Notes: a model not told the origin generated them from the sequence alone. Shown: positions 1,612 through 24,478, numbered from the stretch's first letter. The stretch is 64,000 nt of DNA from an uncultured Phycisphaerales bacterium (GCA_963758525.1 CAVWVQ010000003.1:1920001-1984000), one strand, 5' to 3'. Made by a program: numbers and translations.

Positions 1612-1932
1612 TCAGCGATAAACAAACCGCCGGTTCAGTTTCTCCCGTCGCCTGGCACAGCCGCAATCCGGGACTGACTCGCTGATACGCTGCCAGGCCG
1701 TCTGCTGGCGATAGAGTTCAACCAGGCGGCGAACTCCCGATCGGTGCAGCATCCATGCAACGGAATCGCCAAACCCACGCTGAGCAAAACGCTCCTCGGG
1801 ACATGCGTGCGCCTGCGCATGCTCGATGATGTCGCGCCCGTCCTTCAGGCAGACGCAACCTCCCATGCAATCAGTCTGACGAAACGGGCACGCGTGACAG
1901 ATCATGATGTTATGCGCAAAGATTCTCGACAT
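1612..1932 (-). CDS. Small Cys-rich phage-type protein (CxxC...GxGD...CGCxxRRExLN)
   Basis: 'CHACP', 'RGFGDSVAWML', 'DCGCARRREKLN'; last gene of the cluster. Confidence 0.65.
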   Translation of the reverse strand: MSRIFAHNIMICHACPFRQTDCMGGCVCLKDGRDIIEHAQAHACPEERFAQRGFGDSVAWMLHRSGVRRLVELYRQQTAWQRISESVPDCGCARRREKLNRRFVYR

Positions 1933-1994
1933 GATTCAGCCGTATCGCGGCCGCCCGAAGGGCCGCGTTTCCCCTGCACGAGTAAACCCGCAAT

Positions 1995-2468
1995 TCACGC
2001 ACTCAGCACGACTGATGCTCCCGTCCCCCCCGAGCACGGATTCGCGCAGATCGAATAACTCCCCGCCGGCGGGCAGATCGCGTTCGAAATCACCTCAGCC
2101 CAGACGAAGGTGATCGCCCCGTAAAGCTGCACGACCCAGCGCATGGCGCCGGTCGTGTTGTGGCAGTCAATGAGCGAGCAGAAGACTTGCCATCCAAAGG
2201 AACAGCCGCCCGGCAGGAACATGATGCCGGTGGTCCATTGGCAGTCCGTGCCGATCCGCGTGAGGGTGAAGGTTCCGTTAAGACCGGCAAGGCAGCATGC
2301 GGGTCCCGGCGAGCCCAGCCCGCTGACGGTCAGGTGATACGTCGCCGCGCACGGCGAGCCGCAACCGCCGGGGCAGTTCGCGGAGCCTGTCGCGCACGCG
2401 TTGACGAGATGGCCGGCGCCGTCGTGCAGGAGATGGCCACCGGCGCCGTGATGAAGATGACTGCTCAT
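1995..2468 (-). CDS. His/Cys-rich hypothetical protein, possible tail-tip component
   Basis: ATG at 2468 overlaps the upstream stop (ATGA). 'MSSHLHHGAGGHLLHDGAGHLVNAC...' with many Cys. Confidence 0.7.
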   Translation of the reverse strand: MSSHLHHGAGGHLLHDGAGHLVNACATGSANCPGGCGSPCAATYHLTVSGLGSPGPACCLAGLNGTFTLTRIGTDCQWTTGIMFLPGGCSFGWQVFCSLIDCHNTTGAMRWVVQLYGAITFVWAEVISNAICPPAGSYSICANPCSGGTGASVVLSA

Positions 2469-3421
2469 GGACAGGATTGCGTGGTATCGACGGTGATGCG
2501 TGTTTCGCCGGAGACGGCGATCAGCAAGCCGCGCGCGTCCAGCGAAAGCTCGCGGAGATAGGCATAGAGGACCGCGCCGCTGGTGTCCCAGAACGTGCGG
2601 GTCTGAATCCATAGATTGATCGGCGTGCCGCTGCCGGCCTTGCTCCAGCTTGCTGAATCAGCGGAAAGCGCGCCGCCGGTGCCGTCGCCGAGGGTGGCGG
2701 GAAAGGTCGTTTCGCCATAGCCGCCCCGCACCATCACAATCCAACGCGGGGTTGCTTCGGTCGTCATGCCGACCACACAACCCAAGGCAAACGTGTTCGT
2801 CTTGAGCCGGTGACCCGACACGGCGTCCTCTTCAACGTTGAGCACCAGCGCATTGTCCGCGGCCGGGGTCGTCATCCCGGCGGGCATGCTCAATGCCGTC
2901 GCGGGAGAAGCGGAGCTTGTGCCTCCAAGAATGCGACCGTTGTATTCTCCCGCCCCGGCTGCGGCGCCAGTGAGCTTCACGACGACGACCGGTGTCGGCG
3001 GCGTGTTGAAAACATATAGCTTCGCAGGCGGCGACGACCTCGAATAAAAGCCAACCACCTGCACCAGCGTCCCCGCCGGCAGCAAATGCGTCTTGCCGCT
3101 CACCTCCGCGAGGTTCGTCGCAACCAGGCATTGCGCGATTCCCGGAATCGTATCGGCGCCCGCGCTGAGCAATTGCGTCTGACCCATATTGCCCGGCGTG
3201 GCGCGATCGATGTAATACCGCGCGTCGCTGTAATTCGACCCGGATGTGCTACCACATGGTCCCGCCCGGATGACGCCCAAAAACTGCTCCGCAAACGCCG
3301 GCCGAGACCGTCCCTGCGCGGAATCGCCAATCGCCTCCGCGTAGACGTCCGCCAGTTGCGCCAACAGTGATCCAGATTCCTGATCCGGATCGTGAAATGT
3401 TTCGAGTTCTGAATCTCGCAT
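2465..3421 (-). CDS. Hypothetical virion-associated protein (318 aa)
   Basis: Long Ala/Gly/Thr-rich ORF, translationally coupled to the next gene, within the cluster. Confidence 0.7.
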   Translation of the reverse strand: MRDSELETFHDPDQESGSLLAQLADVYAEAIGDSAQGRSRPAFAEQFLGVIRAGPCGSTSGSNYSDARYYIDRATPGNMGQTQLLSAGADTIPGIAQCLVATNLAEVSGKTHLLPAGTLVQVVGFYSRSSPPAKLYVFNTPPTPVVVVKLTGAAAGAGEYNGRILGGTSSASPATALSMPAGMTTPAADNALVLNVEEDAVSGHRLKTNTFALGCVVGMTTEATPRWIVMVRGGYGETTFPATLGDGTGGALSADSASWSKAGSGTPINLWIQTRTFWDTSGAVLYAYLRELSLDARGLLIAVSGETRITVDTTQSCP

Positions 3422-3499
3422 CGAAATGTGCTTCCCGGGGTGCGCATGAGCACTTCGCGCACTGCAATTCGTCGCACATGAATAGCTGAATATTCGCGT

Positions 3500-3623
3500 C
3501 CCCGTGGCATGGGCTTCCAGCCCATGTCAGTTGCTTGGCGGGAGAGGAGACGTGGACAAGGCTAACGGTGATCTGTACTACTCTTAATGCACTTTACACG
3601 GGCTGGAAGCCCGTGCCACGGGG
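3500..3623. repeat. REPIN family A (GTGG-CAYGGG..CCCRTG doublet), copy 1
   Basis: GTGGCATGGGCTTCCAGCCCATG ... CACGGGCTGGAAGCCCGTGCCAC inverted doublet; spacer motif AATGCACTTTACAC shared with other copies. Confidence 0.85.
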
Positions 3624-3679
3624 AAGGTGCCGGTGGCACGGGCTTGCGTTTCGTGGGCAGCGTTCGCCCGGGGTGCCTC

Positions 3680-3720: not shown

Positions 3721-3728
3721 CTGCCCCT

Positions 3729-4517
3729 CTACAACGCGCTCGGCAATCCCAGCTGCGCAAAGTCCCGCGTCGCGTAGGGAAGAATCTTCGCAACTCCCTT
3801 GTCGTTGTTCGGGCTGACCTGCACGTCGTCGGGAATCTTCCCCGAATAGCGATCGACGAAATATTCCAGCCGCGTCCAGCCGTCCGGGTCGTACTCGAAG
3901 ACATCGCGCACTTCGTATCGCGACAGATTCGCCTGGCTCTTTCCGTCGATCGATCGGCAAAGCCATGTTTTCGCCGCGCCTCCCTGCCATGCGGTCGCAT
4001 TCACGCACCGCCGGAACTTGGTGGACAGCCGCAACGGACTGGTCGGCTCGAGCCGAGTGAACTGCAGCACCGTGTTCGGCGACAAGACCGGCACCTGCAG
4101 CCGATCCTGCAGCACGTTGCCAGCCGGGTCGGTGTATTTCACCAGCATCGGAGTGCCGTCCGGATTCAGGCTCGTCAGCTTCCGCGCCGTTGACCCCGTC
4201 ACCGTGATCTGCACCGCGTTCGGCACCGGCCCCAATTCCGGCGAGCCGTAGCGCACCGTCACTCGCGCGGCAGTTCGGGAATTCTGAATCGGCTCCGCTT
4301 CCAGCGCGATCACATACAGCCCGTACACCGCAGGATGCGCGTCGCCATAGCGCGGAATCCGCGCGCCGCTGGTCCCGTCCGCCGCCGTGGCGGCTTGCGC
4401 CAGCGTATCTTTCCCCGGCAACAGACCGGAAACGTCGAACACGCGAATGAGCAGTCCGCCCTGCCGCGTGTAGAGGAACTTTGCGCCCAGAACGAGATCT
4501 TCGGTGATTTGTACCAT
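3729..4517 (-). CDS. Hypothetical protein, probable distal tail/tail-tip protein (262 aa)
   Basis: Start MVQITEDL at 4517; 'IPRYGDAHP' motif; lies downstream of the tail terminator. The function is inferred from position. Confidence 0.65.
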   Translation of the reverse strand: MVQITEDLVLGAKFLYTRQGGLLIRVFDVSGLLPGKDTLAQAATAADGTSGARIPRYGDAHPAVYGLYVIALEAEPIQNSRTAARVTVRYGSPELGPVPNAVQITVTGSTARKLTSLNPDGTPMLVKYTDPAGNVLQDRLQVPVLSPNTVLQFTRLEPTSPLRLSTKFRRCVNATAWQGGAAKTWLCRSIDGKSQANLSRYEVRDVFEYDPDGWTRLEYFVDRYSGKIPDDVQVSPNNDKGVAKILPYATRDFAQLGLPSAL

Positions 4518-4633: not shown

Positions 4634-5035
4634 CTACGAGACGCTGTACGTATATGTGACCGACCATTCCCACACATCGTTGCCGGCGGCATCGTGTCGA
4701 TGCAGCAACGGCGTCGGCTCCCCGCACCGCGTGACGCTGTCATTGGTTCCGCTGGACAGCGTCAGCAGCGCGTCGTCAAAACTCCCCAGCAGCGTCTGCA
4801 TGTCGCTCCCGATGGCGTCGTGACCGATGCCGTAGGCGCTGAACCGAAGCTCGGTGTCGGTTCGGTATGGTCCGCCATACGCGTAAGAGACCTTGGATGC
4901 GACGATACGCGAGACGACGTATGGCATCGTGGTACCTTCGGGCGCGCGATCGCGGTACAGGCCGCCGGGGAATGCCGCGACCAGCGCAGCGTCGGCAATA
5001 AATTTCGCATAGATGGCATTGAGGAGGGGAAGCAT
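4634..5035 (-). CDS. Tail completion/terminator protein (gp17/DUF3168-like)
   Basis: 133 aa, 'LLNAIYAKFIADAALVAAFPGGLYRDRAPEGTTMPYVV'; size, motif and position fit. Confidence 0.7.
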   Translation of the reverse strand: MLPLLNAIYAKFIADAALVAAFPGGLYRDRAPEGTTMPYVVSRIVASKVSYAYGGPYRTDTELRFSAYGIGHDAIGSDMQTLLGSFDDALLTLSSGTNDSVTRCGEPTPLLHRHDAAGNDVWEWSVTYTYSVS

Positions 5036-5164: not shown

Positions 5165-6082
5165 CTAAGAAGCGGTCAGCGTCCCGGCGTTCACCAGGTT
5201 GTGCGTCCCAATCGTTAACTGTCCCGGATCAGCCGGGTCGAACGCGAGCACCCCGCCGGCGTGATGATTGACTGTCGTGACGATCACCCCCAGCGGATTC
5301 TGCGAAAAGTCGGCGGTTCCCGTTGGGAAAATGTTGAGCGTCGTGATCGCGGCTCCGGAGCTGGGCCGATGACTCAACGTGATGGCGCCGCCCGCATTGA
5401 TCGTGGCAATTGCCGACGATCCGCGTGTCACCGCGGTCGAACCGCTCGACACCGACAACGACCCGGAGCTGCCGCTGGCAGTTGAAAGCGTCGCGCCCGC
5501 GGCAACGGTGGCCGTCGTCCACGCGACGCCCGCACCCAAATCCACAACCGCGCTCGATCCGCTCGCATCGACCTCGCTGATCGTCGCAGTTTCCCCCGGT
5601 AGATTCGTCGCCACGCCAACGCGTCCGCCGAGCACGATCAGCCGGTTCGACGCATTGCTGCCCTTGATCCGCAACGGCTCAAGCCCGCTGTCGATGGAAG
5701 TTCCAACGTTCAATACCGTCCCGACGAACACCGCCGCGCCGAAGTCAATCTTGATGCGTCCCGAGCCGCCGGCGGTCGAGCCATCAGACGATGGCGTACC
5801 GATCGTCCAGGTTGCGGTGCCGATTTTCCAGTAACCAAACGTGCCGGTCGTACCCGTGGTGCCGATCGTTCCAGCGAAGGTCTGGCTGATCGTCATACTG
5901 TTCAGCGTCACCGCCGACATATCAACGGCGCCGATTGACGCCAGCGAAAGTCCGGCGATGGCCTGGACATAGACATCGTCGCCATTGCCCGGCGCTGTTC
6001 CCGTCGTTCCATCCGACTTCGTCCAATTCGCGCCCACCGTCGGATCGGTGGAGGAGATGCTTGACCAGAAAAATGCGGACAT
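5165..6082 (-). CDS. Gly/Ser/Thr-rich beta-strand protein, probable virion appendage (305 aa)
   Basis: GGAG RBS; 'NWTKSDGTTGTAPGNGDDVY' followed by repetitive beta-solenoid-like sequence; no signal peptide. Confidence 0.7.
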   Translation of the reverse strand: MSAFFWSSISSTDPTVGANWTKSDGTTGTAPGNGDDVYVQAIAGLSLASIGAVDMSAVTLNSMTISQTFAGTIGTTGTTGTFGYWKIGTATWTIGTPSSDGSTAGGSGRIKIDFGAAVFVGTVLNVGTSIDSGLEPLRIKGSNASNRLIVLGGRVGVATNLPGETATISEVDASGSSAVVDLGAGVAWTTATVAAGATLSTASGSSGSLSVSSGSTAVTRGSSAIATINAGGAITLSHRPSSGAAITTLNIFPTGTADFSQNPLGVIVTTVNHHAGGVLAFDPADPGQLTIGTHNLVNAGTLTAS

Positions 6083-6265: not shown

Positions 6266-6619
6266 TCAATCAATCAATTCACAATCCAACTGATACAACG
6301 CCTCAGCACTGACAATACTGTTGGCAGATTTCTTGACCGCCTTGACGAGATAGACCCTGGTGCCGTCCGTCAATCGATCCCCCAGCTTTGCTCCACCGGC
6401 AACGAGCGTATCGAGATCGGAGTTGGTGAAAACGTGATAGGTGACAATCACATCGCGTCGCGCGTAGTCGGAGACAACCGACGCGCCCGCGGGAGAGACT
6501 GCACACGCGACATTCGCGAGGACCGTCGCAAACGTCCGAACGGCCGCTCCGCTGCCGTCCCGCGAAATCGTCTGCCGTTGCAATGAGAGAGATTGATCGA
6601 GTAACACGCTCATCGACAT
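6266..6619 (-). CDS. Phage head-closure / head-tail adaptor protein
   Basis: 117 aa, 'LQRQTISRDGSGAAVRTFATV', 'GDRLTDGTRVYLVKAV'; follows the connector gene. Confidence 0.7.
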   Translation of the reverse strand: MSMSVLLDQSLSLQRQTISRDGSGAAVRTFATVLANVACAVSPAGASVVSDYARRDVIVTYHVFTNSDLDTLVAGGAKLGDRLTDGTRVYLVKAVKKSANSIVSAEALYQLDCELID

Positions 6620-6762: not shown

Positions 6763-6785
6763 CACGGGTTGGAAACCCGTGTTAC
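6763..6785. repeat. REP family B single copy overlapping the connector stop codon
   Basis: cacgggttggaaacccgtgttac, identical to 10515-10537. Confidence 0.8.
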
Positions 6786-7714
6786 CAGTTGATCATCTTG
6801 CTGTGATCGATGTATGGGGCGGTCAGGGCCTGCACTTTTCCGGACATCTGCGAACTGGCGGTTTCCGTCTTGAGTTCGACGCTGCTGGCGCCCAGCGTCG
6901 CTTTCTTCAGCGTGTTGTTCACAAGGCTGGCCTGATACAGATCCTGCACGAGTTGCACCGTCGCCTCCTGGATCGGCTGCGGCACGGTCGTGAAGCCGGC
7001 GGTGTAATCGATACGGATGTTCAGTTGCCCGCGCGGGAAGATGCCGAACAATTCGCCGGTCTCATCGTCGAGCCGCCAGCCGGCGGATCCCCAGGAGCTT
7101 CCCTCGTCGCCCGCGTCGCCGGGCCAGGCATTCACCGGCTGAAGAGCTTCACTGTACACCTCGAGGCACGCCCCGCCGCCCAGCACACTTGCCGCTCCCT
7201 GCGATGGCTTGAAATCCGCTGACGGCCATTTGGAGAAATCCCCGGTAATCCCCTGCGGCTGAACCGCCGCCGACCAACCGGCTCCCAGCGCATTGATTGC
7301 CGCTGCCAATGCTCCGATCGTCACGTACGTTGCGTATGCGAGACTGACGCTGCTCGCGACCCCTGAGGCAACGCGCAGGAGCGTCAGACCGCTGTTTGTC
7401 GTTTCCACCGTCGCCCGCTGGTTGGTGGCGCTGTCGCCATTCCAGACACGCAGGGCCGGCTGCGGATGTCCCGCCACCCGCGTCACCTCCAGCACCGGAA
7501 ACTGCCGCAGACGGATCGGCGCATTGCGATAGACGCCGCCCGAGTAATACTCCGAGTAAGAGTTCTGCACGAAATCGCGATTGCACCGTCGCCGGATGGT
7601 GTCGCTCGCCGCCGTGATCAGCGACGCCAGGTAATCCGGCGAACTCGCCTGCAACGCGGCGAGAGCCGTGTTCTGCACCGCGCGATCGGTAGTGATCAGA
7701 TCGGGAAGGGACAT
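6782..7714 (-). CDS. Phage head-tail connector protein (gp6/gp15-like, with insertion)
   Basis: N-terminal 'LITAASDTIRRRCNRDF', 'LRQFPVLEV'; C-terminal 'FPRGQLNIRIDYTAGFTTVPQPIQEATVQLV'. Confidence 0.8.
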   Translation of the reverse strand: MSLPDLITTDRAVQNTALAALQASSPDYLASLITAASDTIRRRCNRDFVQNSYSEYYSGGVYRNAPIRLRQFPVLEVTRVAGHPQPALRVWNGDSATNQRATVETTNSGLTLLRVASGVASSVSLAYATYVTIGALAAAINALGAGWSAAVQPQGITGDFSKWPSADFKPSQGAASVLGGGACLEVYSEALQPVNAWPGDAGDEGSSWGSAGWRLDDETGELFGIFPRGQLNIRIDYTAGFTTVPQPIQEATVQLVQDLYQASLVNNTLKKATLGASSVELKTETASSQMSGKVQALTAPYIDHSKMINW

Positions 7715-7904
7715 TTAGTTTTCTCCAGGCAGACTGTGCGTGTCGACGGCATGCTCACGCCCGAAGCTTTTGAGCGTTAAAGCAAAGTTCAGTCTTCCGT
7801 TTTCAGTGTTCAGTCTTCAGTTGACGAAGCCGGACAAGTGACGGCTGGTGGGGCATCTGCCCATCTTGCAAATTGGTGATAGGAAATCCTCGACCGTCTC
7901 AAGG

Positions 7905-7910
7905 TATAAT
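7905..7910 (+). promoter_or_regulatory. Putative -10 box (TATAAT) of a leaderless promoter
   Basis: Perfect TATAAT 6 nt before GTG at 7917; no SD and no clear -35. Confidence 0.45.
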
Positions 7911-7916
7911 AAGTGT

Positions 7917-8264
7917 GTGCGTTACCTCGCTCTTGCGATTCTTCTTGCGTTCTCGATCGGGCTGTGTTTTCTGTGCCTGTTGCTCGGCGGACTGTCGTTG
8001 ATCGACTTGAGCCCCGACGGACCGTCCAGTTCCCCGTCAGCCGCTTTCCTGTTTTTTGCGGCAGCCGGCTTCTTCTTCCTGTTCACCATCGCGATGCGGT
8101 TCTTCGCACGGCCCCGACCGACGCCCTATGGAACTTGCAGGCATTGCGGCTACGACCTCCGCGCTACCCCCAATCGCTGTCCCGAATGCGGCACCATGAC
8201 CCCGAAGGTAATCGCGAACGGCCGACGGAGTGGAACTGCCACGGCGGGATATGATCGCATTTAA
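7917..8264 (+). CDS. Two-TM membrane protein with C-terminal Zn ribbon (CxxCGYDLRATPxRCPECG)
   Basis: Two hydrophobic helices then 'CRHCGYDLRATPNRCPECG'; GTG start at 7917 inferred. Confidence 0.8.
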   Translation: MRYLALAILLAFSIGLCFLCLLLGGLSLIDLSPDGPSSSPSAAFLFFAAAGFFFLFTIAMRFFARPRPTPYGTCRHCGYDLRATPNRCPECGTMTPKVIANGRRSGTATAGYDRI

Positions 8265-8286
8265 CGAGGATCAGTGATCCTCCCCG

Positions 8287-8429
8287 GAAATCGTGATTGC
8301 GCCGCCGGCGGATCATGTCGCTGGCGCCGTAATCGGCGACGCCAGATAGTCCGGTGAGTCGCTTTATAGCGCCGCCACTGCCGAAGTTTGCACCGCGCGA
8401 TCGGTGGTAATGAGATCAGGAAGTGACAT
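8287..8429 (-). pseudogene. Diverged relic of the 5' ~48 codons of the head-tail connector gene
   Basis: Translates MSLPDLITTDRAVQTSAVAAL*SDSPDYLASPITA/SDMIRRRRNHDF versus intact MSLPDLITTDRAVQNTALAALQASSPDYLASLITAASDTIRRRCNRDF; GGAG RBS retained. Confidence 0.9.
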
Positions 8430-8451
8430 AAGCAAAGCTCCTGCACCGCGT

Positions 8452-8574
8452 CCCCGTGGCACGGGCATCTTGCCCGTGCGGGCGACACGGTGGGAGAAAA
8501 CGCGTGGTATTTTTTATGATTCAGATCTTTTTACGACTGATGCACTTTTACACGGGCAGGATGCCCGTGCCACG
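8452..8574. repeat. REPIN family A, copy 2
   Basis: GTGGCACGGGCATCTTGCCCGTG ... CACGGGCAGGATGCCCGTGCCAC. Confidence 0.9.
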
Positions 8575-8759
8575 ATGAATGGTCTATGATCAGGTCGCTG
8601 GCGGCGTATGCGTGATCGCCTACCACGCCGCCCAAACATCGCAACCGCCGATCCAGTGAAGCTTCTCCCGTTCAATAGTCTCGCGACATTGTCACTCGGA
8701 CTTTGCGTCTTGAGGGGACTTGTCTGGATTTCGAGTCACACGCGGCAGAAAGGGAACCG

Positions 8760-9086
8760 GTGAAACGCAGCCTCTTCAACCTGATGCGTGGACCACGAAA
8801 CGTTCGATTCGTGGTGATTCTACTGTTGCCTGCACTTCTATTATGGGGCTGGGCGGCGCTGGATGACACGGCGCTCCGGTCTGAACGTCATGAGCACGTT
8901 ATTCGGCCGCTGGGGAGGGCATTGGCGGCAGGCTACACCCTGTTCTTTCTGATTGCGGCCGTCGTGAGCGTCCTATCCAAGCGACGGCCGAGAGCTGGGG
9001 TATGCCCCGTCTGCCGCTACGACCTCCGCGCGAGTCCCGGCCGCTGCCCAGAATGCGGGACGCAGCGCCAGAGCGCGACTCGATGA
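8760..9086 (+). CDS. Two-TM membrane protein with C-terminal Zn ribbon
   Basis: AAGGGA RBS, GTG start 'KRSLFNL', ends '[19 protein letters not shown]'. Confidence 0.8.
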
Positions 9087-9652
9087 GACGACAGCTCTTC
9101 ACCATCCTGTCGGCACTATCGCTGTTGCTCGGCGTGATGATGCTTACCGTCATGTTTCTGTGCGGTTGGCCGGAAGGTCGCTGCCATTTCCTGGGAGATC
9201 GCGGCTGGCATCACCAGTGGTTCATCGAAACCGACTACGATGGAGTCTGGCTATGCCGATGGCCGACGTATCTGTTCAACATCGGTGCAATAACATGGAT
9301 TCTGGTTTTTGCCGCGATCCCGAGCCTCGGCGCGTGGACGTGGGGCATGCGATCGCCGCGTCAAAGGCCGTTGCGGGTCCAGCACCGGCCAACGCATCTC
9401 GCCGAACTCGAACTGCCAGGCCGCGTTCTTTTCTACTGCACATCCGTCGCGATCATCTTGTTTCTGATCTCTGAACCGGCAACCATCTTACTCTTTTCGA
9501 TTGTCACACTTGTGGTCGCGGGTCTTTTGACGATTCCACGACGCATGGAGGAGAGGCGACAACGGACGCTTGAGTCGGGTTACTGTCCGACTTGCGGCTA
9601 CGACCTCCGCGCGAGTCCCGATCGATGCCCGGAGTGCGGGAAGCTCCTGTGA
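9083..9652 (+). CDS. Multi-TM membrane protein with C-terminal Zn ribbon
   Basis: ATGA overlap with the previous gene; '[16 protein letters not shown]' ... '[19 protein letters not shown]'. Confidence 0.8.
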
Positions 9653-9980: not shown

Positions 9981-10412
9981 TTAGACCGCCAGCACTCCCG
10001 CAAGATTCCGGGAGGCGGCGTTGTACGGCATCTGCTCCGCGCGGAAGAGCTTGAACTTGGCGGCGAGGAAAGCGCCGGCGGTTCCGTTCCCAACGGTAAT
10101 CGCCGGCCGGAGATAGCGCTTGCGGCTGCGGAGATCGATGTCCCATGCCCACAGCGTGTTGCTGTTGGACGATGACGGCAGCGTGCCGCTGACCGAGAAA
10201 TCGCCGCCGGCGACATCCGTCCATGTGCTGTTATCGTCGCTCTCCTGGAGCTTAAAGGTGGTCAGCCCCACGTCGGTGGCGCCCAGTGTGACTTCGAGCG
10301 TCGCATAATCGAAATTCCTCCGGTCGACGCTCGTGACCGTGAAGGAAGCGTTGTTGAGACGGGCCTGCGGAAAAATGCAGGCCACGTCCTTGCTGGTGGT
10401 TGCGGTAATCAT
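9981..10412 (-). CDS. Capsid cement/decoration protein (Bbp16-like)
   Basis: 143 aa beta-rich, directly after the capsid; 'FKLQESDDNSTWTDV', 'KRYLRP'. Confidence 0.65.
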   Translation of the reverse strand: MITATTSKDVACIFPQARLNNASFTVTSVDRRNFDYATLEVTLGATDVGLTTFKLQESDDNSTWTDVAGGDFSVSGTLPSSSNSNTLWAWDIDLRSRKRYLRPAITVGNGTAGAFLAAKFKLFRAEQMPYNAASRNLAGVLAV

Positions 10413-10416: not shown

Positions 10417-10537
10417 GTACCACGGGTTTCTAACCCGTGTCTTTCTTTTGAGAAGTAAGAGAATCAGAGCGGCGCTTTTTGCATGCAACGCCGCTCTGAC
10501 TCCCGCGTCGCCGGCACGGGTTGGAAACCCGTGTTAC
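10417..10537. repeat. REPIN family B between capsid and cement genes
   Basis: gtaccacgggtttctaacccgtg ... cacgggttggaaacccgtgttac. Confidence 0.85.
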
Positions 10538-12269: not shown

Positions 12270-13146
12270 TTAGCAGACGCGGCCCGTTGCCGCGCAAAAC
12301 ACATCTCTGATTTGCTGACGAACCTGCTGCGCAACCTCCGGCTGAAGGCGCGCCAGTTGACGCTCCAATGCCGTGCGCAGCGTGGCGGAGCGAACAAATG
12401 CTCCGCTCTCTTCTTCGATGATCTCTTGAGGAGTGACTTCCCCTTGCGCCGGCGGTTGCGGGCTCTTCTGCACCGCCGACATCTCCAAAAGCAACGTCGC
12501 CAGTGGCTCGTCGATCAGACCGATCTCGCGGCCCTTCGCAACCGCCTGCATCTGCGCTTCGGGATTGCACGGCACCGGAGCGACCGCATATTCCAGCCCC
12601 GCCGCCTTGTCGATGATCGGGACGCCTGCCAGTTCCGGCCGGCGTTGCCGCTCCTCGGCCGTCGCTTCGCGAATGCTCAATGGGAGGAAGCCGATGCTTT
12701 TCCCCGTGCACGTCGCCACCGGCTGCTGCATCAAATGCAGCACCGCGGACGGAAGCCACGGCGCGCCCTCACCCCAATCGGCGGGCCTGGGGGGATAGTG
12801 CGTCTTGGCAATCAGCCCGTTGCCTCGGCTGCGCATCCACCAGTTGCTTCCCACTGGAAGCTGGTCGTAGCGATGGGCAAAGGTCACCACGCGGTTGTAA
12901 CCCGACCAGTCGATGCCGCCGGGCAGCACGACTTCTCCGTCGTGGTCGAGCGCGTCGGTGGTGATCACGCTCACGTCGGTCCGCTCGCCGGGATCGAGGC
13001 GAAACTCGTCGCTCTTGCGCAATCCGCCGATAGACGAAATCCTTCGGCAGATTGCCGGCCAATTCTTCGATGCGCCGGGCAGTGCCCTCAGGCATCTGAT
13101 GGCCGCCAGGGCCTTCAACGATCGGACCGTTCATCTTGTGTTTCAT
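12270..13146 (-). CDS. HK97-type prohead protease (apparent frameshift near 13022)
   Basis: 'TTDALDHDGEVVLPGG', 'FAHRYDQLPVG', 'KSIGF', 'LEYAVAPVPCNPEA'; lies between portal and capsid. Confidence 0.85.
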
Positions 13147-16394: not shown

Positions 16395-17530
16395 TCATTT
16401 CACGATCGCAACCGCTCCAAACGCGATAGCTTCCTTTAGCCGCGGCGGCCCTACATACTCGAATCCCGCGGTGATCCGCGCAGAACCGGCAGTGCGTCGC
16501 ATCCCTGGCGTGCGACTGGTTCTGCCAAGGCTCGCGGCGATCCCCGGGCCGCGGCGCATGCGCCACAACGGCGATCGCATTCTGTGGGCGATCATTCCGG
16601 GATGCGACGTGGTGCTGAAATAGGGCCGGCCGGTCGCGACGTAGAGACTGGCGACAAATTCGCTCATCGCGTTGCCGATCCCAATGCCCTGGAAATCGGG
16701 GAGACAGACGGTGCGATGCTCGCGCCACCCCGGGCGAATCGCATGCGGATGGGCCAGCACCGCGGTAAACACCGCCGGACGCCCCTGGACGGATCCGACG
16801 TAACAAGCAGCCGACCGGTGCAGATTGCCGCTTAGATAATGATGATGCTTGAAGATCGGCCAGAGTGATTGGTCCGTCCGACCGCAGCACAATTCGATGC
16901 GCGGCCGCCGAAGCCGCCCCCTTGCGAGCGTCCGGCTCGCCATGTCCAGCACCCAATTTGGCTCCAGCCAATCGACGACATCATGGTGACAAGTCACCGC
17001 GACGAGCCGCCTGGCGATACCGAGCGCCGGCCGAAAGCGAATCGCTTTTGACGTCGCGGCAGAAGCGATCTTCGCAACCGTCCGATCCACAACGCTGCTG
17101 AACTCGTCGAACACCACCAGCGGGCCGCCGAGCAGAAGCGCCGCGCCAATTCGCAGCGGAACTTCTCGCCGTTACTCAGCACCGCATGCGGCTTGAGCCA
17201 CGCCGGCGCGCTGCTGAGGCCGACGGCAGTCAGGACACGCGTGATGAGTTTGATCGGCAGCGTGCCGAAACAGTCGATCACCGCGCAATCGGTCGGCCAT
17301 GCTGCCGGCTGATAGAGACTCTCGCCGAACGCCGCGCGTGCGATTGTGCTCTTGCCAGCCCCCGAAGGGCCCACGATCACGCCGATATCCCAAGCCTCAT
17401 CGAGCCCCGGCACCTCCGCGGAGAATTGCTCGCAGGCGCGCTGCTCCACCGGCACGTCGAATAATCCCGCGACCTGCCGTACGCGAAAGCTGTCGTACAC
17501 CGGACATTCGACTGTGAGATTGAGTTGCAT
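16395..17530 (-). CDS. ABC-type ATPase fused to GNAT (Mom-like) acetyltransferase; 1-nt frameshift near 17143
   Basis: 'GPSGAGKS', 'LSNGEKFR', 'VFDEFSSVVDR', 'VTCHHDV', then 'FKHHHYL...HRTVCLPDFQGIGIG'. Adding one G restores ELARALLLGGPLVVFDEF. Confidence 0.8.
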
Positions 17531-17669: not shown

Positions 17670-18194
17670 TCAGCCCACCAGAAGGCGGCAGGCCAAGCCT
17701 TCGGTTGTCAGGCGTTCGTACAGCTTCTGCTGTTCGTCTTCGCTGCCGCATTCGACGACGATCTGAAACTGCGCGGTCCACTCCTGCTCCGTGGCCGCGG
17801 GGGCGGGCGCGGGAGATTCGCCGTTCAACTTCTCGATCTCCTTTGGCGTGAATCCGACGTCGCCCAGTTCTGCGTGCTCGAGCAATTGCGCCAGTGTTCG
17901 ATCGTCCCATTCCGCCAGCTCCGCGGTGCGGTTGTCGGCGATGGCGAACGCGGTCGCCTCCACCGATGCGAGGGAGGTCTGCACGACGCTGACGTGCGTC
18001 CAACCGAGTTCCCGGGCTGCCAGCAGTGTCCCATTTCCTGCCCGGACGACGTTCGCCGCGTCCACGACGATCGGCTTTTGCTGGCCGAAACGGGCGAGCG
18101 AGCTCTTGATCGCCTCGACGTTGCGACGCGGATGGCGGCGTGCGTTCGCGGGATCGGCAGAAAGCCGTTCGATCTCGACAAGTTCGATTTGCAT
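17670..18194 (-). CDS. Phage-type ParB/Srx N-terminal domain protein
   Basis: 'DPANARRHP', 'SLARFGQQKPIVVD', 'AGNGTLLAARELG', 'AFAIADNRTAELAEWD'. Confidence 0.85.
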   Translation of the reverse strand: MQIELVEIERLSADPANARRHPRRNVEAIKSSLARFGQQKPIVVDAANVVRAGNGTLLAARELGWTHVSVVQTSLASVEATAFAIADNRTAELAEWDDRTLAQLLEHAELGDVGFTPKEIEKLNGESPAPAPAATEQEWTAQFQIVVECGSEDEQQKLYERLTTEGLACRLLVG

Positions 18195-18215: not shown

Positions 18216-18509
18216 TCAAATGCGTGCGACGATTCCGTGATCGATGGTCGCCGTGCTGTCGCTCTTGGCAGTGACCTGGAGAATGGAGTTGGTTCCGAGC
18301 CGGAAGTAAAGCGGCGGATCGCCGGGCGCGATGCCGACGAACTCCGTCGGAGCGTGCAATCCGCCGACGTTGACCAGCACATTTCCTGCGCTGGAGGCGC
18401 GATTTTTGACCATGTAGGTAGTGCAAGCCCCGCCATCGCCGCCGCCGGCGGCGTTGAAGAGAACGGTCGGCGTGGTCGTGAGAGAAACTCCGTTGCCCGC
18501 GGTGGCCAT
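18216..18509 (-). CDS. Small beta-rich protein, possible head spike/decoration protein
   Basis: GGAG RBS then 'MATAGNGVSLTTTPTVLF...'; the upstream part of the listed ORF runs through a palindromic repeat. Confidence 0.55.
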   Translation of the reverse strand: MATAGNGVSLTTTPTVLFNAAGGGDGGACTTYMVKNRASSAGNVLVNVGGLHAPTEFVGIAPGDPPLYFRLGTNSILQVTAKSDSTATIDHGIVARI

Positions 18510-19111: not shown

Positions 19112-19573
19112 TCAATGGAGGATGGCGGACGCGGATACGGTGCCGTCTGGCTTGAACGTGACGCTGTACTTGGTGGTGGCGCCGTCCTGCTTGTAACGGG
19201 TGATGGTGCTGGTGCCGTCGCCGTTATTCACGACGTTCGCCCTGCCGGCGACAAACGCACTGAGAAGGGTTTCCAGCAGCGATCGGTACGTCACGCCGTC
19301 GAAGGTGCTGGCGGTGCTGAGCGTCGCATCGGCGCTCCCGTCCCACAGGAGCATGCCAGCGCCGTACTGGGCGCTGCTGGCAGTATCCCGGAAGCTCACG
19401 GCATACGAACCCGCGGCCAGGCCGCTGATCGTTGCCGCATTGCTGTAGATCCCGGCAGGCGCTTCGGTGAGCGGGACGGTAGCGATCAGCGACCCGCCGG
19501 CAAAAAGCAGGGCGCTGACCGTCAGTCCGGTCTGACTGACCGGGTCGAGGGGAAGCGTAAGTTCGTAAGCCAT
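19112..19573 (-). CDS. Hypothetical virion-associated protein (153 aa)
   Basis: Starts 1 nt after the fibre gene stop; beta-rich, 'LTEAPAGIYS'. Confidence 0.7.
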   Translation of the reverse strand: MAYELTLPLDPVSQTGLTVSALLFAGGSLIATVPLTEAPAGIYSNAATISGLAAGSYAVSFRDTASSAQYGAGMLLWDGSADATLSTASTFDGVTYRSLLETLLSAFVAGRANVVNNGDGTSTITRYKQDGATTKYSVTFKPDGTVSASAILH

Positions 19574-19574: not shown

Positions 19575-21743
19575 TTATCTGAGCCTCGTCGCGTGGAGTG
19601 AACCGTATGCGCTGAGCGTCGAGACGCTGAATCCGGCTTTGGCGACCAGATAGACGGTGGTCAGCACTGCCAGATGCAGCCGACGGCTGGGGATCGGCAT
19701 CGCGGCGTCGACGGTGGTTCCGATGGCGATCGGAATTGAGGCAAACGTATCCTGAGCCCCAATGGTCGCGCTGGCGGTGGAGATGCCATGATCCAGATAT
19801 GCGGTGGTCGTCGTGGTGTCGGGATGATAGTCGACAACGCCGTCAACGAGCCAATCGCCGGCCGTCAGTGAGATGCTGGTGACGTTGGCAGCAGCTCCGC
19901 TGGTCAGCGGGACGGCCGCGCCTGATGCGACCGTCGATGCGATCTCCTCGCCGACGATACCGGCGGGCGCGGTCGAGCTGTTGGAAACTCCCTGAATTGA
20001 GATTGCCAACGGCGTCGGCGCCGCCCTGGCATTTCCAGCATTGATGTTTGCCAGCAAGCCCGCGCCGTTCCAAAGCCCGGCGACATTCAAGTGACCGCCG
20101 CCAGTGACGCTGGTCAGCGTCGGAACGTTGCCTTCATTGGTCATCGTCGTGACAAACGCGCTGGTATCGGCAGTGGGAATCAGCGTATCGCTGGCTCCGT
20201 GCCAGAGCGCGATTGCCAAATTGTTCAGCGCGTCGGGCCGCAGGTTTGGGTCGGCGATGGCGACCTGCCCCGAACTTGTGGCCGCCACGGAGACAACATC
20301 ATTCTTGTTGTAAGCTGTCCCGCTGCTGTACGTCCCTCGATTGGTGTACGTCGCGTACGGTTTGGGAAGAATTCCGCCGGGCGGCGTGATCTGCTGCCAG
20401 AAGGTGGTGTTGGTTACCGCGTTGGCGGAGTTGCTTCCCGAGAGACTCAGGTAATAGGTGAGAAACGCGCCGTTGACGGTGCTGGCGAAATTGGTTCCGC
20501 CGTTGGCGCCGGTATAGGCGGCCAACAGATTGACGACTCCCGAGATGCCCGAGAAGCTGCGAACGGGGAGCGACGCATGATTCATCGCGAAGTTCAGCAT
20601 GGTGAGCGCACCCATGCTTTGACCGATCAGATGCAGATTCTTTACGCTGCTCGGCGCCGTCGCCGGCCCCGGGAGCAAGGTCAGGAACGTATCAAGAAAT
20701 TGCTTCCAGACGCCAACCCCGATGGCCGCGCCCCAGGGCGACGCATAGTTGCTCGAATAGCTGGCGGGGTCGCCGCGCACAAACGCCATCGCAACGCCAC
20801 TGTTGCGCAGGTACGCAAAGGCCGTCCCCGAATCGGGATCCAGTAGGCGGAACCCGGTATTTTCGCTCGACGCGTTGGGATGCCCGACCAGGGCGAGATC
20901 GAATTGGGACGCTCCCGTGTAGCTCTCGGGGATGAAAACTTGTCCGGTGTTATCAATCGCCCCATCCGGCCTGGTGACGCTCACCGGGCAGATGCACGGC
21001 GGCTGGAATCGTGGATCGGCTCCTCCGCCGAGCCCGCCCTGGTTGAACAGAATGCCCTTGATGACATTGGCGGAGCTGGATTGCAGAATCTGAATCTGGC
21101 CCGTGTTCTGGTACGGCGGCGCGTGACCGCCGCTGGTGTAGCTCAACGCATATGTGTTGAACGTCTCAGCCGCCGCGTGCGAGGAAAAGTTCGCGTTGTT
21201 TTCAATCCCGCCATGGCCGAGCGGGATGGAACCGACGGAGACTTGATTCCCATCGCTGGCCGCGAAGAAATCGTAGGTCTGGCCATTCACGCATCCGTCG
21301 ATGGTGCCGATCTGCTGTCCCCCGCCGACACCGACATAGATCTGCCCGCCGGCGAATCCCACGTTGAACGATCCGTAACTGGTGTCATTGGGATTCTGAA
21401 AGCAGACGAGCGTGTTGTGCGATGCGTCACCGTTGTAGACCATCCGCACGTTCATCCGCCACGGCTTGGTCGCGTCATTGATCTTGGGCAGAAGAATAAT
21501 TCCCGACGCCTGCGTGCCATTCACGGACGACACCAGGCCGCCGCCACTCGCAATGGAAAATGCCGCGCCGCTTAGACTGAACATGGAGGCGGCGGTCTGA
21601 AACAGCGGCTCGTAAAAGCCGACCGCTCGGCTGACGGCGCTGACTCCTCCGACATTGCGGAGCGCGGCTTGCGCCGAGGGCAGATCGGCCAGATTTGCTG
21701 CCTTGGAAAGCGCGAGCGCGGAGGTTGATGGAGTTCCGGTCAT
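19575..21743 (-). CDS. Fibre/receptor-binding-like protein with central alpha/beta-hydrolase domain
   Basis: N-terminal 'SKAANLADLPSAQAALRNVG' fibre motif; 'LIGQSMGAL', 'WHGASDTLIP', 'GGGHL' triad; C-terminal 'APAGIVGE...SISLTAGDWLV'. Confidence 0.7.
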   Translation of the reverse strand: MTGTPSTSALALSKAANLADLPSAQAALRNVGGVSAVSRAVGFYEPLFQTAASMFSLSGAAFSIASGGGLVSSVNGTQASGIILLPKINDATKPWRMNVRMVYNGDASHNTLVCFQNPNDTSYGSFNVGFAGGQIYVGVGGGQQIGTIDGCVNGQTYDFFAASDGNQVSVGSIPLGHGGIENNANFSSHAAAETFNTYALSYTSGGHAPPYQNTGQIQILQSSSANVIKGILFNQGGLGGGADPRFQPPCICPVSVTRPDGAIDNTGQVFIPESYTGASQFDLALVGHPNASSENTGFRLLDPDSGTAFAYLRNSGVAMAFVRGDPASYSSNYASPWGAAIGVGVWKQFLDTFLTLLPGPATAPSSVKNLHLIGQSMGALTMLNFAMNHASLPVRSFSGISGVVNLLAAYTGANGGTNFASTVNGAFLTYYLSLSGSNSANAVTNTTFWQQITPPGGILPKPYATYTNRGTYSSGTAYNKNDVVSVAATSSGQVAIADPNLRPDALNNLAIALWHGASDTLIPTADTSAFVTTMTNEGNVPTLTSVTGGGHLNVAGLWNGAGLLANINAGNARAAPTPLAISIQGVSNSSTAPAGIVGEEIASTVASGAAVPLTSGAAANVTSISLTAGDWLVDGVVDYHPDTTTTTAYLDHGISTASATIGAQDTFASIPIAIGTTVDAAMPIPSRRLHLAVLTTVYLVAKAGFSVSTLSAYGSLHATRLR

Positions 21744-21868: not shown

Positions 21869-21943
21869 GTGGGGCAATTCCTGAGGTTTTGAAACCGCCT
21901 CGAATGCGGAAGGAAGCCGCCGCAGAGAGAGGAAAACGCCGGC

Positions 21944-23226
21944 TTACTGCGCCTTGACTGATCCGTCGCTGAAAACCTGCTGCTGCCAGACAACCTTGCC
22001 ATCCATGCTCAGGGTGCTGGTGTGCGTTACCGTCGGGGCGGGCGCCAGGGCCGCGGGACTCGTCGTTGGAGGATCGACCGCTGCCGATCCCGGATCCGGA
22101 ACGGCGGGCGGGACCAGTGAACTGGGATTTGTTGCCGGCGTTCCCAGAATGGACGCCGGCTTGGCGGGCCATGCCGGCGCGGCGGGATCATTGAGGTTGT
22201 AGAGACGATCCAGGGTGGAATTAGGATCCACAATCGGCCATGGGACGCTGTCCTTTCCGAACAGCGCCCCCCGACGACGACGTTGCCGCTGGTGGTCGGG
22301 CCGGGCTGCGCGGCGCCGTTGAGGACAAACGCGCTCCAGTTCCAGACGTAGTTGTTGCTGATGGTGATATTCGCGTCCCCCATGATTTCGATGGCCGATT
22401 TCGCCCACAGATCGCGCGCCTGATTTGGCCCGTTCTGAATAATCGCGTTGCCGCTGATCGTGATGTTCGCCCCCTGACCCGCCCAGGGCGGCCCGTTTGC
22501 GCTGCTTCCGGTCGCGCAGCTGATTCCCATGTGCGAGTCGGTGTTATTGGTTACGTGCGGCAGCCAGTCGCTGATCCAGTTGTTATTGATGGTCAGATGC
22601 GTCATCCCTTTTTGCAGTTCGATGCCGATGCGCGTCGCATGCACGATGACGTTGCTGCTGATGTCGGTCCAATCACATGCCGCCGACAGATGGATCGGCT
22701 CGAACACGTTGTCAAAGGTGTTGCGGTCGTACGAGTTGTTGTTGCCGGGATATCCGTAGATTCCCTCGGCATCGAGACCGGAGAAGGAATTGTTGTCAAA
22801 GTGAGAGCCTCGCACCCCCGCGATGAACAATCCGCGATGTCCATCTCGAAAGGTATTGTCGTGGATGTTGTAAACGCCGTTCTCGCAGTGCACCTGGGCG
22901 CAGGTGCAGACGAAGCCGCTGAATTCTGTCACGGCCTTGGAGCCGGTCAGCGAGATCAGTTCCTGATTGTCGTTTGGCGCCACTCCGCCCGAGAGCGCGA
23001 GCACCGCGCCATTGCCGATGTAATGCCGCCCGGTCGGCCAGGTCGCTGCCGCGCCACCGGGATTGGTCGTCAGCATATAGTTGCCGGGCGCGAATGTGAT
23101 CGGACCAAATCCGGGTGTCGCACGCACCACTGCCGCAACATCATCTCCGGGGTGCACGTTATAATTGTCGGCCAGCGCAACGCTCGTCACGCTCAAAGTC
23201 ATCGCCAGGGATGTTAGAAACTTCAT
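21944..23226 (-). CDS. Secreted right-handed parallel beta-helix protein with Pro-rich tail; frameshift in G-run near 22270
   Basis: Signal peptide 'MKFLTSLAMTLSVTSVALA'; repeats 'IHDNTF', 'FDNNSF', 'YDRNTF', 'ISSNVI', 'INNNWI', 'ISGNAI', 'ISNNYV'. Confidence 0.75.
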
Positions 23227-23281
23227 CTTCGGCTTCTCCGGTAAAGCACGGTTCGCATTTTGAATCATTGGCGCGTTGCGT

Positions 23282-23620
23282 TCAATCGACGCGCTGCTGG
23301 AGCATCACTTTCATCGCCTTGAGATCGCCGGCGACGTTTTCGAGCACCACGCGGATTGATTCGGTCGTCAGGCGGGTCTGATCGAGCAGTTGCTCCTGAT
23401 TATCGAGGCGAACTTTCTCCTGCGCAACCAGCAGATTGGTCTGGTTGGCCTCGGATTCGACCGCGGACACCCGCACCTTGAGCGCTTCCAGCTCGATATC
23501 TGAAATATCCGCCCGCGCCTTGAGCACGCAGAAGGCCGCCGATGCCGTCGCCGCGAGCACGGTGATGTGCACCGCCAGCTCGGGGGTGACCCATCCAAAC
23601 AATCGCTGTGAAGCTGACAC
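23282..23620 (-). CDS. Single-TM coiled-coil protein (holin/spanin-like candidate)
   Basis: N-terminal hydrophobic helix followed by a heptad-rich coiled coil. Confidence 0.55.
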   Translation of the reverse strand: MSASQRLFGWVTPELAVHITVLAATASAAFCVLKARADISDIELEALKVRVSAVESEANQTNLLVAQEKVRLDNQEQLLDQTRLTTESIRVVLENVAGDLKAMKVMLQQRVD

Positions 23621-23647
23621 CGCAAGTCCTCCGGGAAGAAAACCAAT

Positions 23648-24202
23648 TCACATTGCCCGCACCGCCGCGACTCGCGCCTTTACGTCAGCGTCGAGCACAC
23701 CAGCAATTGCCCCATTTTGCGCGGGTGTCGGTTCCGGGACGGCTGCATCCAGCGCGCTCACAACCTGCTTCAAGGCCAACTGTGTCTTCGCGTGCTGTTC
23801 GAGTGCGCTGCTCGCCTGAACGTGCTTGACCGTTGCCCACACCAGTCCGATCGCCGCCAGTGCCAGCGAGCCGTACGGCACCGCGCTGACCGCGGCAGAA
23901 ACCGCGGGATCGATCTGGCCGCTCTGAGCCGACTGAATCGCGCCATCGACAACGGGCAGATACTGCTCTCCCCGGGCAATCGCCGAATCCAACTCAGCCA
24001 GCTTCGGCTCAAGCGTTTTGCGAACCGGATCAGAAACCGGGAGCGCGTCGATCTGACTCCGCAGCACAGCTTCCGAGTCCTTCGCGCTGGCAACCGCGGC
24101 GACCGTTTCCGTTCGCGCCGCCGTCAGTTTCGCAAGATCGCCGGAGGTGCATCCAGCGAGCAGCAAGCCGATCGCCATCGTTCGCATTTTCAGTCGCAGC
24201 AT
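23648..24202 (-). CDS. Lipoprotein with internal TM segment (unimolecular-spanin-like topology)
   Basis: Lipobox 'LLLAGC', helical region, hydrophobic 'AVSAVPYGSLALAAIGLVWATV'. Confidence 0.6.
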   Translation of the reverse strand: MLRLKMRTMAIGLLLAGCTSGDLAKLTAARTETVAAVASAKDSEAVLRSQIDALPVSDPVRKTLEPKLAELDSAIARGEQYLPVVDGAIQSAQSGQIDPAVSAAVSAVPYGSLALAAIGLVWATVKHVQASSALEQHAKTQLALKQVVSALDAAVPEPTPAQNGAIAGVLDADVKARVAAVRAM

Positions 24203-24235
24203 CTGTAATTTCCCTTCTATACGCACGGCCCCGAT

Positions 24236-24478
24236 TCAGGCATGGAACACCGACGAGAGTGACATGGCGTGAACGCGCCGGACTGGAAGACGCCGTGCCA
24301 ACGTTCCAGGCGGCGCGGATGCGTGCTCCGTCAGCGCCGCGCGGCGCAGCAATCTGCTGACCGCCGCCGTCTTTACACCCAGACGCCGGCCGATCCGCGC
24401 CAGCGTCCACCCTCGCTCATGGCGAAGCCGCCAGGCAAGATCGCGCCGTCCGAATCGGCTTAGCGTCATCGGTTCCAT
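24236..24478 (-). CDS. Small HTH DNA-binding protein (sigma-70 region-4-like)
   Basis: 'ERGWTLARIGRRLGVKTAAVSRLLRRA'; first gene of the cluster. Confidence 0.7.
   Translation of the reverse strand: MEPMTLSRFGRRDLAWRLRHERGWTLARIGRRLGVKTAAVSRLLRRAALTEHASAPPGTLARRLPVRRVHAMSLSSVFHA

Follow-up and report, generated by a model that had tools for sequence, protein, structure and literature searches.

A tail-tube-less, phage-derived gene block of Tepidisphaeraceae-type planctomycetes as a candidate gene-transfer-agent-like locus

Gene transfer agents (GTAs) have been proven in few lineages, and one review (PMC11841831) treats their spread outside the Alphaproteobacteria as an open question. Six criteria for such systems are set out in the preprint of Kogay et al. 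(bioRxiv 10.1101/2022.06.10.494566): 1) virion-like proteins derived from caudoviricetes, 2) packaging of mostly random host DNA, 3) full endogenization, 4) a head too small for the agent's own genes, 5) mostly vertical inheritance with co-diversification, and 6) DNA delivery. RcGTA (Rhodogtaviriformidae), BaGTA and VSH-1, as presented in that preprint, have chromosomal caudoviricete head, packaging and neck genes but no replication or integration genes, and they diverge vertically with their hosts under purifying selection. A block of genes resembling them in these respects lies in a 64,000-nucleotide (nt) stretch of DNA from an uncultured Phycisphaerales bacterium (the window, G000:C3:1920001–1984000; assembly G000, 6.47 Mb, 6 contigs, 91% complete). 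It is ~23 kb (22.9 kb) long, extends from 24469 to 1612 with most of its genes on the minus strand, has open reading frames (ORFs) over 84% of its length, and had been proposed in an earlier note on the window as a domesticated GTA-like particle locus.

From the genes described below we consider, with slightly better than even confidence, that the block is a host-inherited, selected remnant of a temperate siphophage which makes a DNA-filled, stub-tailed, GTA-like particle. On this reading, four related genera of soil planctomycetes are likely to produce a virus-like particle for themselves and may use it to transfer DNA among cells. A further reading is put forward tentatively and with less than even confidence, namely that this is an independently tamed Planctomycetota GTA with a tail of zero length, which would pack (and may chemically modify) host DNA at random and hand it over to kin. 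The block differs from the known GTAs in its phylum and its separate phage origin, the nearest kin being uncultured phages and Tepidisphaeraceae prophages (capsid 40–57% identical), and in having no tail tube, tape measure, chaperone or recognizable small terminase but a ParB and ABC-GNAT module; random packaging and transfer are putative for the block. Three of the six criteria can be examined in a genome, and the block shows the property in each case: i) TerL, portal, capsid, adaptor, closure and terminator are caudoviricete-derived, for which similarity suffices, ii) endogenization is indicated by genomic evidence (no integrase, replication gene or att site, common flanks, and host-type repeats), and iii) inheritance is mostly vertical, with co-diversification. 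No report of the block or of a planctomycete GTA was found in a literature search at the title and abstract level, most subscription papers lying outside its coverage. Judged from its genes, the block is a candidate GTA that is not of the RcGTA type.

Distribution, descent and selection

The comparison set comprised 141 genomes of the family, including 13 from the carrier genera g1, g2, g4 and g68. Named records with close capsid orthologues are those of Tepidisphaerales, Tepidisphaeraceae, Humisphaera sp. and Phycisphaerales bacterium, and the host appears to be a Tepidisphaeraceae-type planctomycete. Orthologues of the capsid or portal were found, one copy each, in 11 of the 13 genomes of these four related genera (g1, 3/3; g4, 3/3; g2, 4/5; g68, 1/2), whereas the other 128 genomes gave distant and patchy matches (capsid ≤56%, portal ≤41% identity). 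Close orthologues are restricted to the clade (11/13 versus 0/128); the capsid is 79–88% identical in 9 relatives in this set and the portal 65–77% in 9. The two misses in the carrier genera are G144 (89% complete, in 800 contigs) and G095 (58% complete). In G000, TerL, portal and capsid are each single-copy. A search with the 262-amino-acid (aa) protein encoded near the end of the block returned 97 hits, 94 of them at 56–100% identity and the named ones from Tepidisphaeraceae, and the neighbouring 318-aa protein gave a similar identity band. Gene order is identical in all orthologous loci; thirty metagenome loci and four IMG/VR contigs keep it where they are long enough, with the exceptions of L195, L202 and L211.

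In an rpoB tree of 69 taxa, drawn from 121 genomes with an rpoB match, the carriers fell in one clade (support 0.99), which also includes the element-less G144 and G010. With secA, g68 was sister to g2, and the element-less G078 lay inside or beside the carrier clade; rpoC was unable to place G096, which secA placed. G004 was excluded from every tree and stands in the family tallies as a genome without a match. The tree of the concatenated cluster genes (11 taxa) differed from the rpoB tree only with respect to G145, for which rpoB is represented by a piece of ~390 residues, and the cluster topology was not rejected on the rpoB alignment (p-AU 0.28 in an approximately unbiased test with 5000 replicates, a number flagged by the program as few). 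When G096 was added, 7 of 9 splits were common to the cluster and secA+rpoB trees. The conflicts between cluster and host trees fall at nodes where the host markers disagree or data are thin: the three deep groups are ordered differently by rpoB, by secA and by their sum, and the cluster sides with secA. The cluster tree follows the host tree.

The earlier note had asked whether the genes flanking the block, encoding DUF4159 and PilZ proteins, are syntenic in relatives. The DUF4159 gene follows the last block gene in G002, G003 and L185, but the PilZ gene was not found near the block in G002, the only relative with the helix-turn-helix (HTH) side of the flank assembled. The next flank, from a UvrD-like gene to frr and pyrH, is also present in L183. 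G002 has both flanks, since past the HTH end there is also a 180-aa ORF (24882–25424; 45% identity over 150 aa).

Ratios of nonsynonymous to synonymous substitution (dN/dS) were calculated by the Nei-Gojobori method. In the comparison of G000 with L183, a contig carrying both element and host genes, dN/dS was 0.09 for the neck genes (dS 1.24) and 0.11 for the tip genes (dS 0.85), compared with 0.08 for six host genes (dS 0.94). The least saturated pair, L187 and L188 (dS 0.4), gave 0.07–0.10, and over 17 pairs the head, neck and tip sets gave 0.07–0.28, with dS saturated in one set. These values are far below 1 and similar to those of neighbouring host genes.

Repetitive extragenic palindromes (REPs) and short arrays also connect the block with the host chromosome. 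It contains 15 segments of genome-wide repeated 16-mers, against a C3 mean of 7.1 per equal window, and only 3% of the C3 windows match this count. As the earlier note had observed, the repeats spare the ORFs: all 15 segments lie between ORFs, two of them overlapping a stop codon by 4 nt. The families it had reported as common to block and host regions are real (12061/29033, 18713/37135/61156 and 5055/63386–63488), and six of seven counted families have 38–228 copies in the genome. The note had taken the REPs as a sign of long residence. In support of this, the integrase-bearing second prophage of the genome (C3:4.69–4.73 Mb) has 2 repeat segments in 40 kb and none of the seven counted families; as a clock, however, REPs are weak, since the genome has 23 Y1_Tnp (RAYT-like) matches and their spread may be rapid. 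What REPs show is residence, and selection acting on the ORFs, rather than age, and they may still be spreading. The occupancy of gaps by REPs (15/16, versus 36% genome-wide) was set aside as main evidence because the gaps arose partly from REP insertion. GC content along the block (flat at ~0.59–0.64) and GC at third codon positions (block 0.77, genome 0.75) were likewise dropped as signs of amelioration, since the second prophage is just as host-like (0.78).

The block could instead be a satellite or helper-dependent element, or a still-mobile stub-tailed phage, that has integrated repeatedly and depends on helpers such as the second prophage for replication and tail parts. Its beta-helix, fibre and 97-aa genes are 48–68% identical to copies in that prophage, the four IMG/VR contigs are orthologous to the block (capsid 77–89% identical), and the downstream flanks of the block fall in more than one neighbourhood. 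Against this, no integrase, replication gene or att repeat was found in the window, each genome has one copy, the trees follow the host, and dS equals that of host genes on the same contig; the REP load is above the host mean, whereas the second prophage is nearly free of REPs. The IMG/VR contigs have the tube-less order described below and no replication genes were noted in L103, so they are likely to be chromosomal pieces. We regard this reading as highly improbable.

Relative to its orthologues, the G000 block is frameshifted in the capsid (near 11750), protease (13016) and ABC-GNAT (near 17140) genes, and a fourth shift lies in the beta-helix gene (near 22240). The first three amount to 3 in 13.6 kb (2.2 per 10 kb), compared with 5 shifts over 31.2 kb in one set of mostly host genes and 6 over 32.9 kb in another (1.6–1.8 per 10 kb), which is the background rate of the assembly. 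Orthologues such as L103 have single open frames where G000 is shifted, and the protease shift, the one reached by short-read contigs, is absent from one such contig (depth 3.2) that is otherwise identical in sequence. The shifts in G000 are likely long-read errors.

This bears on the alternative that the block is a cryptic prophage relic in slow decay, which makes no particle and owes its low dN/dS to selection in the past or to a useful gene or two. Consistent with decay, core modules have been deleted independently in 3 of the 11 carriers and in L195 and L211, and the gaps gather REPs, zinc-ribbon genes, toxin-antitoxin-like genes, an insertion sequence (IS) and a broken duplicate of the adaptor. 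Orthologous prophages of the Sphingomonadales (PMC5381585), which like the block represent an old insertion retained at a single site in several genera, are described order-wide without proof of particles. Yet across four genera, with dS near or above 1, one in-frame stop was found among all aligned copies (27 taxa); dN/dS is low for the head, neck and tip sets in 17 of 17 pairs, insertions spare every ORF, and the frameshift rate differs little from that of host genes. A relic is therefore improbable in our view. Clade-restricted presence, common flanks, congruent trees, low dN/dS and background-rate frameshifts support the proposal of a long-domesticated, selected element, whose function as a GTA is putative, and the block is very probably maintained by its host under selection.

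Head, neck and predicted tail tip without a tail tube

The head and neck genes of the earlier note (TerL, portal, HK97 capsid, cement, adaptor, closure and terminator) were all matched on the minus strand. Two of its terms have to be corrected: the cluster is not wholly confined to one strand, as the plus strand carries three zinc-ribbon membrane ORFs (7848–9652), and the head and packaging set called complete is short of small terminase, gp10, tail tube, chaperone and tape measure. Its statement that phage mobility genes are absent was borne out, since a scan of 37 ORFs matched neither an integrase nor a repressor pair or replication gene and the longest direct repeat between the two borders was 11 nt. 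A functional temperate prophage would have an integrase, att sites, a repressor switch, replication genes and a small terminase, and these are absent from the window. Phage functions were found in the control prophages, i.e. the second prophage (integrase, primase) and a prophage in G130.

Tailed relatives close to the block are available, among them a prophage within the family, so that the course of gene loss from phage to host tool can be followed directly. Related phage contigs have capsids 38–57% identical to that of the block in 76 of the 80 loci retained out of 123; cultured phages are <35% identical among the matches listed (best 15 of 74). The temperate siphophages of the family (IMG/VR loci L107, L115, L120 and L132 and the G130 prophage) resemble the block in the order from TerL to terminator, in the ParB gene upstream, and in hub-like and Cys-rich tip genes. 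They differ in their patchy occurrence in the family and in keeping gp10, tube, chaperone and a short tape measure: the phages and the G130 prophage have closure, gp10, terminator, tube and chaperone in this order, then a short tape measure, and after it the counterpart of the 262-aa gene and Cys-rich genes, and in L115, L120, L132 and the G130 prophage the tube, chaperone and tape measure sit between the terminator and the hub homologue. In the block, 116 nt separate the terminator from the 262-aa gene; this gap is 2–376 nt in 18 of 23 orthologous loci and 726–1121 nt in the other 5, with no tube match there. The G130 prophage (TerL 48–49%, portal 40–41% identical to the block) differs further in having a small terminase-like gene, HNH and replication genes.

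Neither the profiles nor the single queries used for tube, tape measure, chaperone, gp10 and small terminase gave a credible match, whether in the six frames of G000 (best E 0.06) or in 479 kb of orthologous loci. In control phage loci the tube, gp10 and small terminase profiles were positive, but those for tape measure and chaperone were silent, so the negatives for these two are weaker. A tube profile of 16 sequences matched 8 of the 141 genomes and none of 11 carriers, although very distant forms elsewhere may escape it; the tube label is based on position, on phrog_158 for L115 and on a weak match to PBSX XkdM (E 0.03). In RcGTA, tail tube and tape measure genes lie between the terminator and the tail tip. 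No such genes occupy this place in the block, which is for this reason not of the RcGTA type.

The model of the 262-aa protein (pLDDT 88) has two beta domains. Its best VIA matches are hub, Dit, VgrG and tube chains, all weak (Z 4–5.5; best 5.5, rmsd 3.1, 67 residues), its strong matches in BFVD are to uncharacterized phage proteins (uncultured Caudovirales), and Foldseek gave no match in the PDB at E 0.001 or better. In phage L120 its homologue follows the tape measure. That it is a renamed tail tube was rejected, as it has no profile match to the related tube family and its homologue and a tube coexist in L120. The model of the 318-aa protein (pLDDT 84) gave OB-fold matches with Z up to 6.9, including the phiKZ central spike (Z 5.5), and its homologue follows the hub gene in prophage locus L281. 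We predict that the 262-aa protein is a tail-tip hub and the 318-aa protein a tip or spike. Gene order and the common fold suggest that the terminator ring docks directly onto the hub.

An HTH ORF upstream of TerL in G096 (phrog_7344, E 2e-11) was considered as a small terminase and rejected, because it is absent from this position in the other orthologous loci and belongs to a multi-copy family that occurs regardless of the element, although it may have been co-opted in G096. This phrog_7344-like family has 1–10 copies in 54 of the 141 genomes, mostly away from phage genes (e.g. L274:12934–13743 and G000:C3:1388764–1389510). The small terminases of known GTAs are described as having no DNA-binding domain (PMC11841831; PMC6854486), and the loss of a sequence-specific small subunit in the block would for this reason fit unselective packaging.

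Two further observations concern the prophages used for comparison. The G130 prophage (G130:C1:1600000–1650000; L282, L283, L295) has the full ancestral set and a umuDC pair, and is the best outgroup. The second prophage of G000 (G000:C3:4693000–4733000; L291–L293) has integrase, excisionase, primase-like, capsid and tape-measure-like genes, and no portal or TerL was matched among its 34 scanned ORFs.

The putative particle

The following scheme is proposed. The HTH gene would turn the operon on in some cells; portal, scaffold-bearing capsid and protease would assemble a prohead; TerL, with no recognizable small subunit to select a phage genome, would pack chromosomal DNA, which the ABC-GNAT protein may acylate; and adaptor and closure would seal the head. 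The terminator ring would then dock straight on the tube-fold ring of the 262-aa hub, which would carry the OB-fold and Cys-rich tip proteins. The variable beta-helix and fibre proteins, presumably swapped with resident prophages, would bind recipients, and the small membrane genes would aid release. Delivery of DNA to kin would be the least certain step.

A DNA-filled head is favoured because motor, portal and stopper are intact and the ABC-GNAT protein is predicted to acylate DNA bases. The particle may nevertheless serve something other than transfer, whether by decoying related phages or interfering with them (hijacking or poisoning their head assembly or packaging), by killing or adhesion, or by storing DNA in the capsid. 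The data on inheritance and selection fit this equally well, and DNA injection is uncertain when tube and tape measure are missing; moreover, single parts seem to be of value, as G003 keeps capsid, neck and tip and G005 portal and neck, and related temperate phages infect the family (the G130 prophage). On the other hand, most carriers keep motor, head, neck, tip, intact TerL motifs and the ABC-GNAT gene, which points to DNA-filled, sealed heads, and the Pfam, PHROG and NCBIfam scans gave no match to a toxin or lytic domain for the tip genes. PBSX packages host DNA without self-propagation, keeps a contractile tail and kills; the block has no tail tube, while its head, motor and tip are conserved. 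We hold a non-transfer particle to be unlikely.

Several points weigh against a GTA-like particle. First, particle, DNA packaging and expression are predictions from gene content. The hub and spike calls come from gene position and weak fold scores (Z ≤5.5 and ≤6.9). For DNA entry, phages with long tails usually depend on a tape measure. The review of GTAs cited above (PMC11841831) describes a capsid with a tail and a small terminase, and neither tube nor small terminase is found here. Second, as to inheritance, dS is near saturation in most pairs; the genes downstream of the block are others in g68, and G096, L187 and L188 have a different downstream neighbourhood in common; and the rpoB topology was rejected on the cluster alignment (p-AU 0.0002, same number of replicates), most likely because the rpoB fragment of G145 is misplaced. 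Searches of G144, G095 and G010 with portal, adaptor and the 305-aa gene gave no match, nor did G078, which is 98% complete and by secA in or near the clade, with adaptor, capsid and portal. Third, core modules are gone from 3 of the 11 carriers, the losses lying within assembled contigs: G003 (85% complete) lacks the genes from ParB to protease between HTH and capsid, and no TerL or portal was found in its genome; G005 joins the protease to the adaptor, capsid and cement being gone; and in G145 the capsid is followed by an IS and unrelated genes. Similar deletions or rearrangements occur in the short metagenome contigs L195, L202 and L211, where some joins may be misassemblies. These module losses indicate that the system is dispensable and has been lost or cut several times in the clade.

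As to head size, an HK97-size head of normal dimensions could hold 23 kb. If the stub-tailed, GTA-like particles do work with no tube, tape measure or small terminase, they would be a minimal machine for DNA packaging and delivery, and would test the need for these three components in DNA entry.

Gene content and accompanying observations

The features of the block are listed in Table 1. Orthologues of the HTH gene adjoin the block in G002 and G003, and matches were also found in G001 and G146; promoter and terminator scans of 23000–26200 found none. The lipoprotein had no match in Pfam, PHROG or NCBIfam, and small lipoprotein or membrane ORFs occupy its position in G002 and G003; the 112-aa membrane protein had no family match either. 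Copies of the beta-helix and fibre-like proteins in the second prophage are 68% and 58% identical, respectively, and the ParB-like protein is 48–62% identical to genes of related phage contigs. ABC-ATPase-GNAT fusions have been predicted to acylate DNA bases (PMC7824862), and the same is predicted for the fusion in the block.

Table 1. Features of the block, genes in minus-strand order followed by insertions and repeats (window coordinates)
Feature	Position	Strand	Evidence and remarks
HTH protein, sigma70 region-4-like	24236..24469	-	PF04545 E 2e-6; likely late-operon regulator
Predicted lipoprotein	23648..24226	-	lipobox-like motif; possible lysis or envelope gene
112-aa membrane and coiled-coil protein	23282..23620	-	G001 orthologue 50% identical; possible holin/spanin type
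Secreted-type beta-helix protein, variable part	21944..23268	-	PF13229 E 2e-11; phrog_2234 tail spike E 3e-4
Fibre-like protein, hydrolase-fold middle, variable part	19575..21743	-	phrog_11393 tail fibre E 2e-15 (C-terminus)
153-aa all-beta protein	19112..19573	-	L103 60% identical; likely virion accessory
97-aa all-beta protein	18216..18509	-	73–86% identical in G001, G002, L103; likely virion accessory
ParB-like protein with small C-terminal domain	17670..18194	-	PF02195 E 0.014; TIGR00180 E 0.002
ABC-ATPase-GNAT fusion	16395..17530	-	phrog_11143 E 9e-56 and 4e-31; one 387-aa ORF in L103
Terminase large subunit (TerL)	14835..16394	-	phrog_38 E 5e-84; motifs intact
Portal protein, HK97 type	13288..14679	-	PF04860 E 1e-37; 65–77% identical in 9 relatives
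Prohead protease	12270..13146	-	called from position and conserved His and Ser motifs
HK97-fold major capsid protein, N-terminal scaffold-like part	10534..11975	-	PF05065 E 1e-37; 75–88% identical in 9 relatives
Capsid cement/decoration protein, Bbp16-like	9981..10412	-	PF21190 E 2e-4; phrog_5707 E 4e-16
Head-tail adaptor	6782..7714	-	phrog_442 E 1e-21
Head closure (stopper)	6266..6619	-	PF05521 E 2e-6
305-aa conserved phage-type protein	5165..6082	-	orthologues 62–86% identical; likely repeat-fold spike or fibre
Tail terminator	4634..5035	-	PF11367 E 5e-5; profile matches solved terminator 9lbn_K E 3e-4
262-aa two-domain protein	3729..4517	-	directly after terminator; predicted tail-tip hub/Dit, tube-like folds
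318-aa protein, OB-fold domains	2465..3421	-	predicted tail-tip or spike part
Cys-rich protein, predicted tail-tip accessory	1995..2468	-	50–79% identical in genus g1 and close loci
106-aa Cys-rich protein, last gene of the block	1612..1932	-	orthologues 35–56% identical
Three zinc-ribbon membrane ORFs, inserted	7848..9652	+	multi-copy host family, 12–16 tblastn hits each in genome
Broken duplicate of adaptor 5' end	8261-8429	-	contains stops
REP/REPIN-type palindromes and short arrays, intergenic	3499, 4518, 5068, 6115, 6759, 8451, 9737	.	repeated 16-mers
REP/REPIN-type palindromes, remainder	10513, 12060, 13191, 14695, 17541, 18567, 21832; weak one 1947	.	repeated 16-mers

The Walker A/B, coupling and nuclease acidic motifs of TerL are conserved in 9 of 9 orthologues, and no solved relative of this protein was found by sequence. 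The protease had no library match; its His and Ser motifs are conserved in every copy covering them, as are the motifs of the ABC-GNAT protein. The capsid is a single ORF of ~480 aa in G001, G002 and L103. For the 305-aa protein, the look-alikes found with ESM are unnamed viral clusters, and homologues are present in phage loci L107 and L120. Related phages have Cys-rich ORFs at the position equivalent to 1995–2468.

Insertions and length variants were also seen. The membrane family, whose proteins end in a zinc ribbon, has inserted repeatedly in gaps of the block across orthologous loci, often in tandem, on the opposite strand and beside REPs. The protease of G001 is lengthened in frame to ~400 aa. 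TerL has in-frame insertions between or within its domains in G069:C249, G096:C143 and G147:C426 (frames of 577–682 aa).

In the surroundings of the block, the sole tRNA gene of the window, tRNA-Ser(CGA) at 46764–46852, is distant from the block borders. Host genes are also split by frameshifts, including those of the DUF4159 protein, a UvrD-like helicase and an EF-G-like protein; split sites were noted at window 208–1401, G000:C3:1916794–1918856 and L290:12074–14205. Finally, lone TerL homologues with 43–46% identity are present in G092:C73, G093:C65 and G133:C61, with no other block gene in the contigs fetched; two of these three genomes belong to genus g66, and the homologues may mark another retained element.

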